NCBI GenBank assembly: GCA_964564035.1
Contig: CAZLZN010000005.1
Span: 1,504 to 65,503 of the forward strand
DNA from: an uncultured Gammaproteobacteria bacterium
Lineage (GTDB): Bacteria > Patescibacteriota > Microgenomatia > Levybacterales > UBA12049
Length of the DNA: 64,000 nucleotides
Reading direction: 5' to 3'
Positions 28,282-63,299 of the stretch are shown piece after piece. Made by a program: the position numbers and the translations under genes. The notes beneath the pieces are model-generated. The model was not told the origin of the DNA. It saw only the letters and a program-made list of their open reading frames with translations, and made no database searches. Position 1 is the stretch's first letter. Each line of letters opens with the position of its first letter.

Positions 28282-29733
28282 TTAATTTTCCGTCGGAACT
28301 ATACGGACCATTCGTTGATTATCGTCAAATAGCGCGCCAATAACGGCTGTTTTATGTGAATTACGCTGTAACCTGTCTCTGATGATTTTCGAATTATCGG
28401 TAACCTGCTTACTGGATACAGCTAAATATTCTCCCGGGTCAACATCATCTGATCCGGGCTCCGCTCGTCCGGTTACAAATATAATCCTCGTATTTTCCGG
28501 AGTGTATAGGTGCATAATGTCTCTGACTTGTTGATCTGCCAGCGCGCCTTGTGCAGTAACTTCAACTGCGTTTCGCTCACCCGTATTAAATGGATATCCT
28601 TCAGGCCCCGCTCTCACTATAGATGGTCCGCCTGTTATTGCTGATCTCTGCGGCTTAATTCCGAGCCATGTGTTAGCGGTAATGTTATATACCGCTTCAT
28701 AAGCTATGGCTTTTATCGCCCAGTCTGCTTCTTTTTCCTTCAGTTGTTTAGGAATCCAGCCATAATTATTTTTAGACCGCTCAATCTCAGTAACTATTTT
28801 TGCGATTCTCGATGTATTTATAATATTTGCGGCCAAAGTTCTCGAGTCGCGATAATCGTGCGACATTGTCAACATATTCGCTTCGCCGACAGCCAATATT
28901 GTTTTTTTCAGCCTTGGTGCTAAAAATTCGGTCATTAGGATTTTGCCGTCCATATGAAGATCAGTCAGATTTTGCCGTAATGTTTTTTCAGAGTCAAACA
29001 TCTCCGCCCTTCTTGAGTCATATATGCCTTTTAGGCCAAAAATAAGCATTCCTGTTCCGGCATCATAAATAGAACTAATTGTACTGCCCTCTGCTTTACC
29101 TGTTCTTGCGTATTCTCTAAAAGCACTAAATCCTCTATCCAGTTCCTCAAAATGCACGGGAAGACCACCGTGTGTAGGGATTTTTTTGTTTACACTATCT
29201 CTTTTGTCTTTTACTGCTGCTGTTATCATTTGATTACAGCTTTGTTCAGGATTAAACGAATTAATATGTGTACCCGCGAATTCAACAAATCTGGATTCAC
29301 GGCCTGACCTTCTATTATTTCTAATAAATTTATCGACAGTATATGCCAATACGGGATCACTGAGTTTTATTTCTCCGTAAACATTTTCTTTGGTTTTAGT
29401 AAATCCCCCTAGTCTTCTGTGGCTAAGCGTGACATGCGGGATAGCTACGTTTACAGGTAAAATGTCGCTGTGAGAACACGTTTGAAAAATAGTTTTAACT
29501 CCCAAATAATCTTCAATTTCCTTTTGCACTCGCCTATAGCCTTCGGAGGCAAAGTTTGAAGAATTTATTTCCCCGTCAATAATAGTTCTCGCCAAATGGG
29601 GATAGATTAGACTAGGTCCGGATTCACTTTTTGTTCCGGGAAACTGCCTCTTCAATTCCAAATTTCCACTATCAAGGAGAAAGTCTATATGGCGATTAAG
29701 CTCTCCTAGCCGGGAATTTTCCTGTCTGGACAT
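28282..29733 (-). CDS. Hypothetical protein (483 aa)
   Basis: Long intact ORF with no motif I recognise. A TATAAT lies 8 nt upstream of its ATG. Confidence 0.5.
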   Translation of the reverse strand: MSRQENSRLGELNRHIDFLLDSGNLELKRQFPGTKSESGPSLIYPHLARTIIDGEINSSNFASEGYRRVQKEIEDYLGVKTIFQTCSHSDILPVNVAIPHVTLSHRRLGGFTKTKENVYGEIKLSDPVLAYTVDKFIRNNRRSGRESRFVEFAGTHINSFNPEQSCNQMITAAVKDKRDSVNKKIPTHGGLPVHFEELDRGFSAFREYARTGKAEGSTISSIYDAGTGMLIFGLKGIYDSRRAEMFDSEKTLRQNLTDLHMDGKILMTEFLAPRLKKTILAVGEANMLTMSHDYRDSRTLAANIINTSRIAKIVTEIERSKNNYGWIPKQLKEKEADWAIKAIAYEAVYNITANTWLGIKPQRSAITGGPSIVRAGPEGYPFNTGERNAVEVTAQGALADQQVRDIMHLYTPENTRIIFVTGRAEPGSDDVDPGEYLAVSSKQVTDNSKIIRDRLQRNSHKTAVIGALFDDNQRMVRIVPTEN

Positions 29734-57556: not shown

Positions 57557-58180
57557 TTATACTTTTTTTTGAACTGCCGACACAGTTTCCTTTACTGTTT
57601 CGGCTTGTTCAGTATCCTCTTTGTCGCTCGTATTCTTTTTACCTTTTTCAACTGACAAAATAGAGATCATCTGTCTGCCCTCAAAATGAGGCGGCCTGTC
57701 CACTTTTGATATGTCGCTTAAAGCCTCAATTACGCTTCCTATTACTTTGTGACCGAATTCAGGATGAGTAATTTGTCTCCCCTTGAATTTTACGACGAGC
57801 CTTATTTTGTCACCGTTTTCTATAAACTCCCGGCCTCTTCTGATCATGACCTGAAGGTCATTGTCAGACATAAAAGGCCCGAGCCTTATCTCTTTTGTTT
57901 GAGATACTTTCGCTTTTTTCTTTTCTTCTTTTTTCTTTTTCTCCTGCTGGTATAAGAACTTCTTAAAGTTAATGATCTTTGCAACCGGAGGCTTTGCCAT
58001 TGGCGCAATCTCAACAAGATCCATCTCCTGATCTTGAGCCATTTTTAGAGCCTCGTGTCTTTGTAATACTCCGATCTGTTGACCTTGAGCATCCAGCACT
58101 CTAAGCTCCACAGCATTGATCCGCTGATTGATCTTATAAAATTTTTGCCTCTGCTGTTCTTGTCTACCTCTTCTTATCAA
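57557..58180 (-). CDS. infC: Translation initiation factor IF-3 (non-ATG start likely)
   Basis: INQRINAVELRVLDAQGQQIGV...PVAKIINFKKFLY...KEIRLGPFMSDNDL. The track ORF (to 58273) runs 110 nt into thrS. TTG at 58180 or ATA at 58177 are the plausible starts. Confidence 0.85.
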   Translation of the reverse strand: MIRRGRQEQQRQKFYKINQRINAVELRVLDAQGQQIGVLQRHEALKMAQDQEMDLVEIAPMAKPPVAKIINFKKFLYQQEKKKKEEKKKAKVSQTKEIRLGPFMSDNDLQVMIRRGREFIENGDKIRLVVKFKGRQITHPEFGHKVIGSVIEALSDISKVDRPPHFEGRQMISILSVEKGKKNTSDKEDTEQAETVKETVSAVQKKV

Positions 58181-59915
58181 TGTTTTCTTTAAGTTGGCGT
58201 ATAAACTCTGAAACTTTGGTTTTACCCAAATCTTCGCCTGTTCTTGTACGCACGGAAATTGCCTCCTCGGCAATTTCTTTGTCCCCTATTATACCCAGAA
58301 AAGGCACCTTTTGTAAAGTAGCGCTGCGTATCTTCGCCTGAAGCCTCTCAGCGCGCATATCGATCTCGCATCTGATGCCAGCGTCAACCATACTTTTTTT
58401 GACTTTTTCCGCGAACTCATTGTGTCTGTCGGCTATTGGAAGCAGTAATACCTGCTCGGGAGAGAGCCACAGCGGAAACGCTCCGGCATAATGTTCAATC
58501 AGAAATGCCATAACCCGTTCAATCGCACCTATGGAAGATCTATGGATTACGATTGGCTGCTCCGGTTGGCCTTGCTCGTTGATATAGCTAAGTTCAAATC
58601 TTTTTGGCATTACAAAATCATACTGCACGGTAAAAGCCGTGTCTTCTTTGCCATTCACATTTTTCATTTGTACATCGATCTTTGGACCATAAAAAGCCGC
58701 CTCGGCTTCCGCTTCCACAAAATGAGACTTGCGGGCTGTAAGCACATTTCTAAGCACGTTTTCTGCAAAATCCCAGGACGCATCATCTTTGAAATATTTT
58801 TTTTCATCTTTCCTATCACCCAAAGAAAGTCGATAATGATAGTCTTTGCCTGCTTCGAGGGAAAATTTTCCGGCGACAAATTCTATTAGATCAAGTACTC
58901 CGTTTATTTCCGCATCTGCCTGATCAGGCCTGGCGATTATATGCGCGTCTGCGAGAGTAAATACTCTCACTCTTTGGAGTCCTGCTAATTCCCCCGATTG
59001 TTCGTAGCGGTATAGCTTCGCAAGTTCCGCGATACGAAGCGGCAGGTCCCGGTAACTGTGTTGTGAAGCTAGATACAGCTCAAAATGGTGAGGACACGAC
59101 ATTGGTCTCAGCATAAATTGTTCTTCATCTATTGTTATCGGCGAGTACATTGAGTCTTTATAATAAGGATAATGACCCGATTTTTTATAGAGCTCGAGAC
59201 TTGCGATGTCGGGCGTATAGACATGTTTATATCCTCGTTTTATTTCTTCATCGACTATAAAACGCTCAAGTTCGCGCCTTATCACCGAACCTCTTTCGGT
59301 AAGCAGAGGAAGGCCTTTTCCGATGGTGTCTGAAAATACAAATAGCCCAAGTTCTCGCCCCAACTTCTTATGATCTCTCTTTTTTGCTTCCTCCTGCTGT
59401 TGCAGATATTCGTCCAGTTGTTTTTGTGTGTGAAATGCGGTCCCGTAGATCCTGGTCAGCATCTTATTTTTTTCACTACCCCTCCAGTAAGCACCTGCAA
59501 TGCTAAGTAGTTTAAACGCGCCGATCTCTTTAATTGGATTTTCGCTATGACCTCCACGGCACAAATCCTCAAAACTGCCTGATTTATACAATGTAATTTT
59601 TTCTCCCTTTGCGGTAATTTCATCGATCAGCTCCAATTTATAAGGATTGTGATTATAATATTCCCTGGCTTCTTTTTCGCTAACTTCCCGGCGGGTAAAT
59701 TTATCCCATGATTTTAGGATATCATTCATTTTATTTTCTATTTTCGGTAAATCTTCGTCGCTTAAGGGTGATTTGAAATCAAAATCATAGTAGAATCCGT
59801 TTTCGATCGCAGGACCGATAGTTAATTTCGTATTAGGATGTAGATCCAAGACGGCCGCCGCCAGCAGATGAGCGCAGGAATGCCGTAGATTTTGTAAATT
59901 TTCTTCAGGAGTCAT
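58164..59915 (-). CDS. thrS: Threonyl-tRNA synthetase (lacks the N-terminal TGS domain)
   Basis: Second-additional-domain motif HSCAHLLA, class II core (FRPMSCPHH-type MLRPMSCPHH) and a C-terminal anticodon-binding domain. Confidence 0.95.
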   Translation of the reverse strand: MTPEENLQNLRHSCAHLLAAAVLDLHPNTKLTIGPAIENGFYYDFDFKSPLSDEDLPKIENKMNDILKSWDKFTRREVSEKEAREYYNHNPYKLELIDEITAKGEKITLYKSGSFEDLCRGGHSENPIKEIGAFKLLSIAGAYWRGSEKNKMLTRIYGTAFHTQKQLDEYLQQQEEAKKRDHKKLGRELGLFVFSDTIGKGLPLLTERGSVIRRELERFIVDEEIKRGYKHVYTPDIASLELYKKSGHYPYYKDSMYSPITIDEEQFMLRPMSCPHHFELYLASQHSYRDLPLRIAELAKLYRYEQSGELAGLQRVRVFTLADAHIIARPDQADAEINGVLDLIEFVAGKFSLEAGKDYHYRLSLGDRKDEKKYFKDDASWDFAENVLRNVLTARKSHFVEAEAEAAFYGPKIDVQMKNVNGKEDTAFTVQYDFVMPKRFELSYINEQGQPEQPIVIHRSSIGAIERVMAFLIEHYAGAFPLWLSPEQVLLLPIADRHNEFAEKVKKSMVDAGIRCEIDMRAERLQAKIRSATLQKVPFLGIIGDKEIAEEAISVRTRTGEDLGKTKVSEFIRQLKENIDKKR

Positions 59916-60001: not shown

Positions 60002-60020
60002 TAATACTTAATACTTAATC
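60002..60020. repeat. Tandem heptamers TAATACT TAATACT TAATC
   Basis: Read directly. The last partial unit (TAATC) overlaps the stop codon of ORF 60019-60309 by 2 nt, so the repeat begins at that stop. Confidence 0.7.
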
Positions 60021-60309
60021 AAAGATTTGGATTATTGGTAAGCACAAAATCAATCACATCCGAGGCGAAGCCTCCAATTACAGGTACCAGATCAATTTGC
60101 CGGCCCACCAGGTTGAGGATCGTAAATACAAACGACAATCCGACAGTAGCGCCAAGCGCCCAGGAAATCCCGCCGAGAAAATTATTGAAAATAATCTCTT
60201 TTTTCGAAAGCTTTCTGACAGTTTTTTCAAATGGTTGTGAATCCTGAGCCATAGAATTTATGAATCCCTTAGTAATATTTCTAATATTTAAAAGTTTACC
60301 AGCTTTCAC
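60019..60309 (-). CDS. Small two-helix membrane protein, hypothetical
   Basis: NNFLGGISWALGATVGLSFVFTILNLVG...VPVIGGFASDVIDFV. Confidence 0.45.
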   Translation of the reverse strand: MKAGKLLNIRNITKGFINSMAQDSQPFEKTVRKLSKKEIIFNNFLGGISWALGATVGLSFVFTILNLVGRQIDLVPVIGGFASDVIDFVLTNNPNL

Positions 60310-60481: not shown

Positions 60482-62836
60482 TCAATTATCGTTACCGGGG
60501 GAAGTTGAGGTTAGGCCGTCGTTTTTAATCACGCTCTCTGCCGGTTCGCCGTTTCTTATTCTGTCTTTTTCTTCTTCAGTCAACTCCCTGCCTGCGAGAA
60601 GCTTAGCTTGACCAAGCTGTTTATCGATATCTTCCTGGCTTGGCTTCGTTTTCTGTTCCGGCTCGTCCGTTTTCACGTCTCTCCCGGTTTCTCCTTCAGT
60701 GGGCTGAGCACTGCCTGCTGGCTCATTCGCTTCCTTTTGCGCGGGCTGTGCCTGTTCGGGTTGCGGCTGATCGCTCCCGCTCTTATCGGCATCTTTTTGG
60801 ACGTTATCCCCGGCATGTACCGGTTTTACCTGTTCAGCCTGTGCGGGTTCGGCTGGCTTTTGTTCCGATCCCTCAGCCTGAGTTGATTCTACTGCTTCAG
60901 CTTGTGTCTGCCTTTTTACCCCATATCTTACTCGAGGTTTTCTGATTACTTCATCTCCCATAGCAAAACCCCTTCTAAAGTGCACTTTGGTAATCCGATT
61001 AACATCCTCGTCATTGTCTACTACGTCTCGGGAAGAAACATCCATTTTATCCGGATCATAGGTTTCGCCAATATTCACCGTTATTGGTTTTATATTTTTA
61101 TCCGCCAGCAGTTTTATAAACTCGGCCTCTTTTTCTTCGATTAAAGCGCTGTCTTTAGGAGCTAGATCCTTCCGAGTTGCCTTGTCCAAGCTTAACATAT
61201 CCAAATAATTTATTAATAGCAATGCTTGATCTTTCTCGGACTTGTCTGATGCCATTTCGACAGATTTAACAGTAGTTAATAAATGCTGAGTAGTAAGTCG
61301 ATACAGTTCATCGCTAAAATCCGCAGGCTTTTGTTCATATGATTTAAGAACAGGCAGAAAATGTTTAATAAATTCATTATTGCCGTTACCTATTCTCTCG
61401 CTAAGCTCTTTTATATTTCTGGAAATCTCTTCAGTTGACGCATTGACCGGCTCAACTTCAACCTGTCCTGTTCTGTCTGTCTTCTTTTTCTTAAGCGTAT
61501 ATTCAGGCTCGCGGATGACATTACCATTTCTAGTATACCCTCCAAGTGCTAATGCATAGCCCTCCTCTTCATTCTCCTTTGCCTCAACTTCTGTTATTTT
61601 CGCCTTCTCCTTCTTTTCTTCCAGATATTTTTGAGGATCAATTGGTCTTACGCCCTTTTCCGCTAGCTTTTGCGCCACATCTGACTGTGTTTTTTTATAA
61701 AATTCTTTTTCCGGATCTGATAATTTGTCGAAGTCGGTATTTTGTAGAGTATCCAAAATAGATATGATAGTTAATAATTGACTTTCATCGCTTTTCGAAG
61801 TCATACTTTCGGCTTTGGTAAATGCCTCGACAACAGCCCGGGCATTATTTACAAATACTTCATCGCTAATGCCGTCTGGTTTGGTCTTGTACGATTCAAG
61901 TATTGGCTTAAAATGTTTCATAATTTCTGTACCTGTATTATCCAGTCTGTCATAAATTTCTGTAGCTCTTTTAGTCAACCCTTCAACAGAGTTGTTTTTT
62001 GCTTCTTCCTCGGCTTTTTTCCGCGCCTCTTCCCGTTTCCGTTTTTCCTCGTCCAGCCTGGCCTTTTCTCTCTTATCCCATTCTTGATAATTGCTGTTAA
62101 TAGCTTCCAGATATGCCTTATCGTCATCGCTGAGATTATTTATCTGTAATCCGGCAGCCTTCTTGAATTCCTCCTCATTGTTTTTGAGATTAAACATTCC
62201 CTCTGTGACAAGACGCGCAATTTCTGTCGAATTTTTCCCGTAGAAACTGCCGAGAGCTTCCAAAAGCGAAATTTCTTTTGTACTTATTGAGCCGTCCGGA
62301 TTAGTCTCGGAAATAGTTAGTGATTTTTTCTGCGCACTGCTGAGATCTTCTTCGCTGAAGGACTCGGCGATCCGCTTGCCAAAGAATCCGAGATTGCCTT
62401 TGCCTTCGACAAAAAACTCATCATAAAAATCTTTGGCGCTTTTACCTTGATCATAACCAAGTTTAACAAGTAAGCCTTTTTGTTCGGGATTGCCTCTGAA
62501 CGCGTTAAAAATCTGGTCGGCATTTGCAGTCCATTCGGTTTTTTTGTCATCAAACGCAATTTCACGGCCGGCTTTTTTTTCTTTATCCTTCCAATAATTA
62601 TCCCTTTCAAACTTGGAACTTTTTGTAATTTTTTCGAGATTCGGAGATTCACTGCTTGCCTTTATCGTGGTCAGAGCTTTAATTGTATTTTCGGAAGTGT
62701 CTTTTTTACCATCCATCAGCAGTGCCGCTTGCAAGCCGGCTTTTTCCTTATTAAAAAGCTCTTTTGTTTTTTCGGCTTCCTGCTGTACGGGAGCCGGTGC
62801 TTCCGGATTTATACCATTTGGTTGATTTTCAGCCAT
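60482..62836 (-). CDS. Large acidic protein with two tandem GrpE-like modules
   Basis: Residues about 575-640 read LLADKNIKPITVNIGETYDPDKMDV...VNRITKVHFRRGFAMGDEVIRKPRVRYGV. They follow the GrpE C-terminal pattern G.e.I...G..FDP..H.A...V......GY....r..RpA.V.V. A weaker copy lies at residues about 390-447. Confidence 0.5.
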   Translation of the reverse strand: MAENQPNGINPEAPAPVQQEAEKTKELFNKEKAGLQAALLMDGKKDTSENTIKALTTIKASSESPNLEKITKSSKFERDNYWKDKEKKAGREIAFDDKKTEWTANADQIFNAFRGNPEQKGLLVKLGYDQGKSAKDFYDEFFVEGKGNLGFFGKRIAESFSEEDLSSAQKKSLTISETNPDGSISTKEISLLEALGSFYGKNSTEIARLVTEGMFNLKNNEEEFKKAAGLQINNLSDDDKAYLEAINSNYQEWDKREKARLDEEKRKREEARKKAEEEAKNNSVEGLTKRATEIYDRLDNTGTEIMKHFKPILESYKTKPDGISDEVFVNNARAVVEAFTKAESMTSKSDESQLLTIISILDTLQNTDFDKLSDPEKEFYKKTQSDVAQKLAEKGVRPIDPQKYLEEKKEKAKITEVEAKENEEEGYALALGGYTRNGNVIREPEYTLKKKKTDRTGQVEVEPVNASTEEISRNIKELSERIGNGNNEFIKHFLPVLKSYEQKPADFSDELYRLTTQHLLTTVKSVEMASDKSEKDQALLLINYLDMLSLDKATRKDLAPKDSALIEEKEAEFIKLLADKNIKPITVNIGETYDPDKMDVSSRDVVDNDEDVNRITKVHFRRGFAMGDEVIRKPRVRYGVKRQTQAEAVESTQAEGSEQKPAEPAQAEQVKPVHAGDNVQKDADKSGSDQPQPEQAQPAQKEANEPAGSAQPTEGETGRDVKTDEPEQKTKPSQEDIDKQLGQAKLLAGRELTEEEKDRIRNGEPAESVIKNDGLTSTSPGNDN

Positions 62837-63225
62837 ATATTTTTATTGAATCTATTTAAAATTCTATGTCAAATTTTATTGTACAGTACCCAAAAAAACT
62901 TTACAAGAACCTTTTATATTCATAACAAATTATAGCTTAACCCCCCCGCTCTGATCATATTCTCATAAATTAAACTAATGCACGAGAAAATTAAATATAT
63001 TACACTCAAATTGTTCCGTTGTCTAGACAACAGTACAATAAATAAAATCACAAATTAAAAATGTTCAGCGCAGTAATTTCTTAAAAATTTGTCCACATTC
63101 GCTGAAATTCCTGAGCGTTCTTCGGCATGTTCAGGATAGTGAGCGTAAGCGCACCTTAGGCTCGAGTAAGATTCATTGAAGTATTCTTATATTCACGCGG
63201 CATTTAGATCGCACATTTCACGTTG

Positions 63226-63299
63226 TGGAGCTGACAGGACTTGAACCTGTGACCTTTTCAATGTCAATGAAACGCTCTAGCCAGCTGAGCTACAGCTCC
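63226..63299 (-). tRNA. tRNA-Val (anticodon GAC)
   Basis: Manual cloverleaf: GGAGCTG TA GCTC AGCTGGCTA GAGC G TTTCA TTGACAT TGAAA AGGTC ACAGG TTCAAGT CCTGT CAGCTCC A. Confidence 0.9.

Follow-up and report, generated by a model that had tools for sequence, protein, structure and literature searches.

Tandem GrpE-homologous modules in a 784-residue Levybacteria protein, one member of a modular family with a shared N-terminal domain

Within a 64,000-nucleotide stretch of contig CAZLZN010000005.1 (assembly GCA_964564035.1, positions 1,504 to 65,503 of the forward strand; the whole stretch is hereafter 'the window'), a single gene on the reverse strand encodes a protein of 784 amino acids (aa) that carries, one after the other, two modules homologous to GrpE. 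GrpE is regarded as the one invariant nucleotide-exchange factor (NEF) of bacterial Hsp70, a small homodimer whose long stalk also serves as a thermosensor. The protein described here is built unlike any described GrpE: what is new is the placing of GrpE-derived modules in a new architecture, together with an unusual population-genetic behaviour, the block that holds them having been swapped between strains. The protein could well be an accessory, lineage-specific DnaK co-chaperone of the nucleotide-exchange-factor type, adaptor-tethered and stalk-less; a reading that we favour, but hold with some reserve.

Both internal repeats are homologues of GrpE

The open reading frame (ORF; window 60482..62836, reverse strand) begins with an ATG codon and specifies an acidic product (pI 5.03, net charge -30; 12.4% Glu and 7.3% Asp), in which neither a signal peptide nor a transmembrane segment is found (maximum 19-residue Kyte-Doolittle hydropathy, 0.58), making a cytosolic location likely on these sequence criteria. 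As the same protein, identical throughout, is present on 15 contigs from several independent sequencing runs and samples, the gene is real and stable; three full-length homologues, at 45–54% identity, have the whole architecture in common with it.

A sequence-only reading of the window, made before this analysis, had described an acidic protein of this length with two tandem GrpE-like repeats, at about aa 300–447 and 486–640, the second of them ending in the C-terminal beta-domain pattern of GrpE. The repeat itself is readily confirmed: BLASTP alignment of aa 281–470 with aa 471–660 scores 57 bits, with 25% identity over 187 columns (pairwise E = 3e-15), and without composition correction the score is 70.1 bits, where 500 shuffles of the second copy reach 32.0 at most (mean 10.9, sd 8.5). 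Both repeats lie where that reading had placed them, although each starts some 20 residues earlier than proposed, the hidden Markov model (HMM) envelopes running from aa 282 to 452 (module A) and from aa 466 to 643 (module B).

The same reading had suggested the Pfam GrpE profile as a check, and here the protein itself gives nothing: there is no match to the full 784 residues even at E<=10, and NCBIfam and phmmer against PDB sequences likewise return none. Saying this, both repeats are GrpE homologues, since phmmer, hhalign, a profile built from the modules and AlphaFold/Foldseek all agree. An exhaustive phmmer search, with the 784-aa protein as query against 1.84 billion cluster representatives, returned 45 representatives at E<=1e-3; among them, and reached through module B alone, are two proteins of ~190 aa (P0043, E = 1.5e-5; P0046, E = 1.2e-4) that are canonical GrpE (Pfam PF01025 E = 4e-37 and 8.5e-46, respectively), the gene for P0046 lying in a clpB...groES-groEL-dnaJ-grpE cluster. 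Relatives with just one module score above the PF01025 threshold in their own right (P0024, 47.4; P0005, 36.8; P0006, 34.3; P0012, 31.4 bits).

Compared by hhalign with an alignment of three canonical GrpEs, the module B copies match at 97.4% (E = 1.4e-11, 112 columns) and the module A copies at 90% (E = 1.7e-6) over 73 columns, corresponding to the second bundle helix and the beta-domain; module A is in turn matched to the single-module relatives at 99.7% (E = 4e-26). A profile of 17 modules finds the sequences of solved GrpE structures in the PDB (4ani, 3.9e-8; 1dkg, 5.3e-6; 3a6m, 1e-4). Narrower searches gave no support, an 8-module profile against the PDB missing GrpE and hhalign against the lone E. 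coli GrpE sequence producing an alignment that is in register but has a probability of only 4.8%; detection thus needed both the broader profile and the small GrpE alignment. Elsewhere in the window, E. coli GrpE has a weak tblastn match at the C-terminal end of ORF 28282..29733, which on inspection was put down to chance.

The predicted fold leads to the same family. The AlphaFold2 model of module B, made from an 8-copy alignment, has a pLDDT (predicted local distance difference test) of 92.5 and a pTM (predicted template modelling score) of 0.82, with helices at module positions 67–87 and 93–111 followed by six strands. When searched against the PDB with Foldseek, its top 11 matches are all GrpE (probability 0.92–1.0; E. 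coli, T. thermophilus, Geobacillus and human GrpEL1), after which there is only noise; the top 11 for the full-length model are likewise all GrpE. In that model, module A shows the same secondary-structure pattern as module B, with pLDDT >90. The matches fall on the beta-domain and on both bundle helices, and none on the stalk, on coiled coil or on low-complexity sequence; profile and structure searches have therefore both led back to GrpE, as the sequence-only reading had proposed.

Architecture of the protein and anatomy of its modules

Working from the N-terminus towards the C-terminus, the gene divides as follows (window coordinates, strand, feature and basis):

62129..62836 (-), N-domain core, aa 1–236, mostly helical with one beta-hairpin (full-length model, family alignment)
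61988..62128 (-), charged, E/K/R-rich spacer helix, aa 237–283 (model helices 237–281 and 284–301)
61481..61987 (-), GrpE-like module A, aa 284–452, its head being aa 284–348 (HMM envelope, hhalign, pLDDT >90)
61481..61792 (-), GrpE-derived core of module A, aa 349–452 (alignment)
61436..61480 (-), disordered inter-module linker, aa 453–467 (pLDDT <50 for aa 455–464)
60908..61435 (-), GrpE-like module B, aa 468–643, its head being aa 468–532 (phmmer, hhalign, PDB profile matches, AlphaFold2)
60908..61240 (-), GrpE-derived core of module B, aa 533–643 (same evidence as module B)
60644..60907 (-), acidic, Glu/Gln/Pro/Ala-rich disordered region, aa 644–731 (pLDDT 31–45)
60482..60643 (-), C-terminal helical motif, aa 732–784, and stop codon (conserved columns, model)

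The full-length model has pLDDT >90 over aa 30–281, covering the N-domain and the spacer helix; the latter, poorly conserved at 42–46% between clade members, runs without a break into the first helix of module A. The sequence-only reading had set the modules between an N-terminal region of 290 aa and a Glu/Gln/Pro-rich tail of 140 aa. An N-terminal region (aa 1–283) and a Glu/Gln/Pro-rich stretch (aa 644–731; 55% E+Q+P+A, net charge -10) are indeed present, but the last 53 residues are not of low complexity: they hold a conserved motif (...LLAGRELTEEEKxRIxxGExAxxVIK...) predicted to form three short helices, with pLDDT 91–94 over aa 734–769. An HMM of this tail matches only P0001–P0004, so that the motif is limited to the four proteins with two modules.

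In each module, of ~175 aa, the GrpE-like part is the C-terminal ~110 aa, comprising two helices of the kind from which GrpE assembles its four-helix bundle and a six-stranded beta-domain. It is this portion that canonical GrpE (PF01025; 1DKG from E. coli, 4ANI from G. kaustophilus and 3A6M from T. thermophilus) has in common with the modules, including the motifs LLxxLD and G-[FY]-x4-5-[VIL]-[IL]-R-x3-V and, for module B, G-x-x-[FY]-D. The first ~60 aa form a helical 'head' that, by alignment, has no counterpart in canonical GrpE; in the AlphaFold2 models each module opens with a helix of 16 residues, after which come two short ones and one of 20 residues. The long N-terminal stalk through which GrpE dimerises is present in neither module, by models and by alignment alike.

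Between a short helix and a second helix, the head bears the motif [IV]-K-x-F-x-P-[VI]-L-x-x-[YFL] (KHFkPiLesY in module A), which within the 784-aa protein takes the form [IV]-K-H-F-[LK]-P-[VI]-L-x-S-Y at aa 306–316 and 489–499 (window ~61889-61921 and ~61340-61372). Weak profile matches of this motif to the N-terminal domain of yeast Swi6 (2xfv, E = 0.002–0.011) and to the Sin3 PAH domain (6xaw) are probably a chance similarity between helix motifs. The weak secondary fold matches of module B, for their part, are all to four- or five-helix bundles of ~110 residues (2rld, 2gsc, 4dwl, 9lki, 1x90). Taken with the pTM of 0.82 for a lone module and the existence of single-module relatives, these matches suggest that a single chain supplies the whole bundle, its head helices included, and that each module may be a self-contained, monomeric GrpE-like unit.

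With respect to signature residues the two copies differ. Module B retains LLxxLD, which sits in the first bundle helix of the core, and the G-F-x4-V-I-R-x3-V segment, as well as a loop, G-E-T-Y-D-P-D-K-M-D-V, in which Met takes the place of His. The canonical form of this loop, G-x-x-F-D-P-x-x-H-x-A, is present in P0043, P0046, 4ani and 1dkg, whereas module B and all of the single-module relatives have G-x-x-[FY]-D-x-x-x-M instead of G-x-x-F-D-P-x-x-H. Module A is a degenerate copy, without the G-x-x-FDP-x-x-H loop (PIDPQKYLEEKKEK). Over alignments of 8 and of 17 modules, G-[FY]-x(4-5)-[VIL]-[IL]-R-x(3)-V and the Asp of LLPxxD are invariant or nearly so, and three residues are retained in every module, namely the Asp of LLxxLD, the Gly of G-[FY] and the Arg of [IL]-R-x3-V.

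The N-terminal domain is shared with phosphatases and a peptidase

No other part of the protein is as well conserved as the N-domain, which is common to ~43 of the 45 representatives from the exhaustive search. R78 and G147 are invariant, with S74, W82, W102, Y138, G200 and N216 nearly so, and its motifs read K-I-T-x-x-S-x-x-E-R-D-x-Y-W, G-K-G-[DN]-x-G-[FY]-F and F-Y-G-x-x-S. We find no match to it in Pfam, PDB sequences, PDB folds or BFVD, and PADLOC gives none for eight members of the family; similarity to the clostridial glucosyltransferase toxins (E>=0.26, probability <=0.35) was judged not significant. A new, confidently folded and previously unannotated domain family of ~280 aa is hereby defined in the Patescibacteria, or Candidate Phyla Radiation (CPR).

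What follows the N-domain varies from one relative to the next. In ~12 representatives it is joined to one GrpE-like module; in P0009, P0017 and P0021 to a PP2C phosphatase; in P0011 to a Metallophos (calcineurin/NinI-like, PP1-like) phosphatase; and in P0040 to a Peptidase_Mx1 metallopeptidase (Zn-peptidase), with several representatives having no recognisable C-terminal domain. These partners (GrpE-like, PP2C, Metallophos and Peptidase_Mx1) all act on proteins, and the N-domain behaves, judged from domain composition, as a shared adaptor for protein-acting domains. On one contig (L084, 1845-8581) two N-domain paralogues stand in tandem, an 836-aa Metallophos protein and a 928-aa PP2C protein, directly followed by a gene for a 338-aa AAA+ protein with a ClpB_D2-small domain; the AAA+ neighbour is a possible second link of the family to the proteostasis machinery.

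The closest relatives in design are the single-module proteins exemplified by P0005 (490 aa), P0024 (691 aa) and P0012 (806 aa), unnamed in databases, which resemble the 784-aa protein in N-domain, spacer, head and GrpE core. They have one module and are without the conserved C-terminal motif, several of them passing the Pfam GrpE threshold. The 784-aa protein differs in having its module duplicated, with one copy degenerate, and in its disordered region and tail.

A two-module block exchanged between near-identical strains

Two of the four tandem proteins, P0003 and P0004, come from different samples (contigs compared: L093 and L001), and their amino acid identity is distributed very unevenly along the chain:

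N-domain core, 99%
spacer helix, 95%
module A, head 75% and core 38%
module B, head 27% and core 30%
disordered region, 88%
C-terminal tail, 100%

In nucleotide sequence the contigs are 98–100% identical, with DUF5665 and thrS included, outside a block of ~1.05 kb (aa ~315–665; L093 1100-2184), inside which identity falls to 43–66%. The synonymous distance (dS) is 0.014 in the N-domain core and 0 in the tail, as against 1.6 or saturation in the modules. With dS tiny in the flanks and saturated within the modules, these comparisons show that the two-module block was imported by recombination from a distant allele, rather than having evolved rapidly in place. Hypervariation of the type generated by diversity-generating retroelements was considered and rejected, the divergent block being ~1 kb long, with all codon positions affected and dS saturated.

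Where it can be measured, the ratio of non-synonymous to synonymous change (dN/dS) is 0.18–0.27 for the modules (the range found for module B), with 0.09–0.13 for the N-domain core and 0.6–1.0 for the disordered region; by this sequence measure, both modules are maintained by purifying selection.

An accessory gene in a tRNA-adjacent slot

The gene lies within the local order trigger factor - DUF5660 - tRNA-Val(GAC) - target gene - DUF5665 - thrS - infC - rplT - pheST, the neighbours seen in the window being DUF5660, tRNA-Val, DUF5665, thrS, infC, pheST, a penicillin-binding protein gene, tyrS and recG. Trigger factor, two genes upstream and beyond the window end, is seen on other contigs that carry the identical protein. 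A 151-aa DUF5660 ORF was considered as a shortened version and rejected, as the gene runs off the window end. The features immediately about the target gene are:

63225..63299 (-), tRNA-Val(GAC), immediately upstream of the gene (ARAGORN)
62878..62906 (-), promoter-like site TTGTAA-17-TACAAT, sigma-70-like, ~40 nt upstream of the ATG (consensus scan only)
60019..60309 (-), small DUF5665 gene, downstream, the right edge of the slot (Pfam PF18910, E = 2.4e-10)

The promoter-like site falls within the 388-nt intergenic region that follows tRNA-Val. DUF5665 keeps its position in L001, L002, L083, L089-L093 and in relatives that are without the target gene, and it is identical between the P0003 and P0004 contigs despite their different cassettes; L002 and L083 have extra small ORFs (141 and 83 aa, respectively) without a Pfam match. 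What occupies the interval differs. In L006, L008 and L009, tRNA-Val abuts DUF5665 and there is no target gene; in L005 (2532-5675), genes for HD-domain proteins fill the space; and the single-module P0005 gene sits in precisely the same slot, between tRNA-Val and DUF5665 and downstream of trigger factor and DUF5660. Given relatives that have no gene here, other cargo or a single-module protein, the gene is accessory cargo of a tRNA-adjacent variable slot in Levybacteria, and the tandem form is an internal duplication confined to one rare Levybacteria clade. Neither the closest Levybacteria nor any GTDB species representative has the gene, which is therefore dispensable. In the JGI metagenome collection, neither an alignment search nor a degenerate pattern for GKGNLGFFGK found relatives.

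As to the organism, its threonyl-tRNA synthetase (ThrRS) is 72–77% identical to those of metagenome-assembled genomes (MAGs) of Candidatus Levybacteria/Levyibacteriota (Microgenomates, Patescibacteria/CPR). Many GTDB MAG records with a ThrRS 65–77% identical (L003, L005, L007 and others) are titled 'uncultured Gammaproteobacteria' or 'Pseudomonadales', titles that seem to be placeholders or taxonomic errors introduced at submission. On the P0005 contig (L083, 1-4699), mobile-element genes (a TraG/TrwB-like ATPase, a relaxase-like protein, ArdC, RadC and a serine recombinase) lie just upstream of a tRNA-Leu - trigger factor - DUF5660 block. In the window, a mechanical call of infC (57557-58273) gives an IF-3 ORF of 238 aa with a TTG start that overlaps thrS by 110 nt, whereas for related contigs gene callers predict a product of 180 aa; translation probably begins internally or at a non-canonical codon, a feature of infC that is known from other bacteria.

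Discussion

Two domains make up GrpE, one alpha-helical and responsible for dimerisation, the other a beta-domain, and a single beta-domain of the dimer enters the nucleotide cleft of DnaK (reviewed by Bracher and Verghese, PMC4753570). For the adaptor-tethered co-chaperone that we favour, the head helices of each module would pack on the two bundle helices, giving a self-contained monomeric unit, and the beta-domain of module B, perhaps also that of module A, would open the DnaK nucleotide-binding domain and so promote ADP release. The N-domain would dock the protein on a particular partner or site, accelerating DnaK cycling locally; a logic that, by analogy, is that of the eukaryotic BAG proteins. 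The tail may have a regulatory effect on the modules, or it may touch the substrate-binding domain of DnaK in the way that the flexible N-terminus of GrpE does. One module is seemingly sufficient, since the single-module P0005, in the same slot, passes the Pfam GrpE threshold.

A number of observations weigh against this proposal. The 784-aa protein does not reach the gathering threshold of PF01025 (25.8 bits). As to signature residues, module B, like all adaptor-linked modules, has Met for the FDPxxH His, the loop is missing altogether from module A, and the equivalent of E. coli R183 is Glu in module B, although this position is also variable in the canonical P0043 and P0046. Genomic context offers no help either: the sequence-only reading had noted that no hrcA, dnaK or dnaJ gene is adjacent, and indeed a Pfam scan finds no chaperone gene among the ten flanking genes and tblastn no dnaK or grpE anywhere in the 64-kb window. 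The gene occurs in 0 of 80 GTDB thrS loci, those of the nearest Levybacteria relatives included, and an alignment-based search of GTDB genomes shows that no species representative encodes a relative. Divergence is fast, the protein of the window being 55% identical to that of L002 where ThrRS is 92% identical, and the swapping of a cassette between near-isogenic strains is unexpected for a factor serving the cell's own conserved DnaK. Finally, the arrangement of domains is uncertain in the full-length model (pTM 0.55).

The exchange of cassettes invites a different explanation, which we think improbable yet worth taking seriously: that this is a polymorphic effector or host-interaction protein, its N-domain serving for delivery or anchoring, and its GrpE-like cassette targeting a foreign Hsp70 (of host, phage or competitor), in which case cassette swapping would track partner diversity. 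This CPR bacterium presumably lives on a host cell, as an episymbiont. A conserved N-terminal domain with swappable, unrelated C-terminal enzymatic domains across paralogues would suit such a protein, as would the tandem N-domain paralogues of L084 with their different effector domains; the sharp-edged replacement of exactly two modules, with flanks 99–100% identical and dS saturated inside; the fast evolution relative to neighbouring genes; the variable slot next to tRNA-Val, with other cargo in relatives; and the patchy, rare distribution. Pulling the other way, no signal peptide, transmembrane segment or trafficking domain is recognisable (Pfam, PADLOC, PHROG), no secretion system or obvious immunity gene lies nearby in what are housekeeping surroundings, and PADLOC is silent on the eight family members searched; moreover, dN/dS in the modules is well below 1, phosphatases and GrpE are atypical as toxin domains, and the episymbiont lifestyle of this organism is an assumption drawn from CPR bacteria at large.

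To a similarly low degree we would entertain a GrpE fold repurposed without any Hsp70 role, for binding or scaffolding, or with module A as just a structural partner, the activity residing in the N-domain and the C-terminal motif. It is the N-domain and tail, not the modules, that are most conserved; the stalk is lost, as are the FDPxxH loop of module A and, by replacement with Met, the His of module B; Pfam GrpE does not match the 784-aa protein, no chaperone genes are linked to it, and cassettes just 27–38% identical are apparently interchangeable. Yet the beta-domain and bundle helices keep their signature residues, under purifying selection, across a deeply diverged family, several single-module relatives score above the Pfam threshold, and we know of no other function for the GrpE fold.

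We consider it very unlikely that the protein is the organism's only GrpE, a fused and duplicated stand-in that performs housekeeping exchange in place of a lost canonical grpE. The window contains no canonical grpE, CPR genomes are reduced, and a tandem duplication could in principle replace the GrpE homodimer; but the nearest Levybacteria and every GTDB species representative are without the gene, which rules it out as the essential NEF of the lineage. Furthermore, the closest canonical GrpE, P0046, is encoded in an ordinary groES-groEL-dnaJ-grpE cluster, an orthologue with one module occupies the slot of the 784-aa protein and so shows duplication to be unnecessary, and rapid evolution with cassette exchange misfits an essential housekeeping factor. 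Virtually no weight attaches to an artefact, in which the GrpE likeness would be mere coiled coil or low complexity and the repeat compositional, for although the 784-aa sequence is rich in E and K, includes a charged helix and has no Pfam match, and 'GrpE-like' labels resting on coiled coil do exist (PMC12625404), such similarity is ruled out by the matched region (bundle helices and beta-domain throughout, never the stalk), by the shuffle control (70 bits as against <=32) and by a confident beta-domain fold that matches only GrpE structures.

How, then, does the 784-aa protein relate to what has been described? Canonical GrpE is a single-domain homodimer of ~180–220 aa, held together by its long N-terminal stalk and usually linked to dnaK, dnaJ or hrcA (PMC4753570); here, a short head takes the place of the stalk, there are two modules per chain and no chaperone operon, and the gene is accessory and recombining. 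Extra GrpE-type factors, specialised or dispensable, are found beside the housekeeping one in GrpS of M. xanthus and in mitochondrial GrpEL1/GrpEL2 (PMC10313047; PMC4753570), though these differ from the 784-aa protein in having the standard, single-domain dimeric architecture. The eukaryotic BAG factors are three-helix bundles of an unrelated fold, without homology to the modules, the likeness that we infer being one of targeting (PMC4753570). A 'GrpE-like' region in Pseudomonas phage tail fibres is, like the cassette, a recombination hotspot; it is however a trimeric coiled coil that matches the GrpE stalk only, with no beta-domain, and is unrelated to the modules (PMC12625404). The sequence-only reading had called the architecture unfamiliar, and full-text searching of the literature turned up no account of a multidomain or tandem GrpE; the protein does not stand alone, however, being a clade-specific duplication within the wider family that couples N-domain and module.

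For the biology of GrpE, the family shows that its core can exist without a stalk, apparently as a self-contained module, that it can be tandemly duplicated within one chain, and that it can join an adaptor domain which elsewhere bears phosphatases or a peptidase. Should the modules still act on DnaK, there are targeted NEFs in bacteria too, although to our knowledge these have so far been thought a eukaryotic innovation, represented by the BAG proteins. The exchange of cassettes between near-identical strains raises the further possibility of a partner other than the DnaK of the cell itself. A bolder reading, speculative and rather improbable, is that of a modular CPR family of effectors or co-chaperones, one adaptor with interchangeable protein-acting heads (monomerised GrpE modules, Ser/Thr phosphatases or a peptidase), in which the GrpE cassette, whether single or tandem, would be swapped from strain to strain because it has to suit a variable partner Hsp70, perhaps the DnaK of a host cell. 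Were this true, the 784-aa protein would be the first GrpE-type exchange factor to act as a polymorphic inter-cellular effector, or at the very least the first bacterial counterpart of the BAG-type targeted NEFs.

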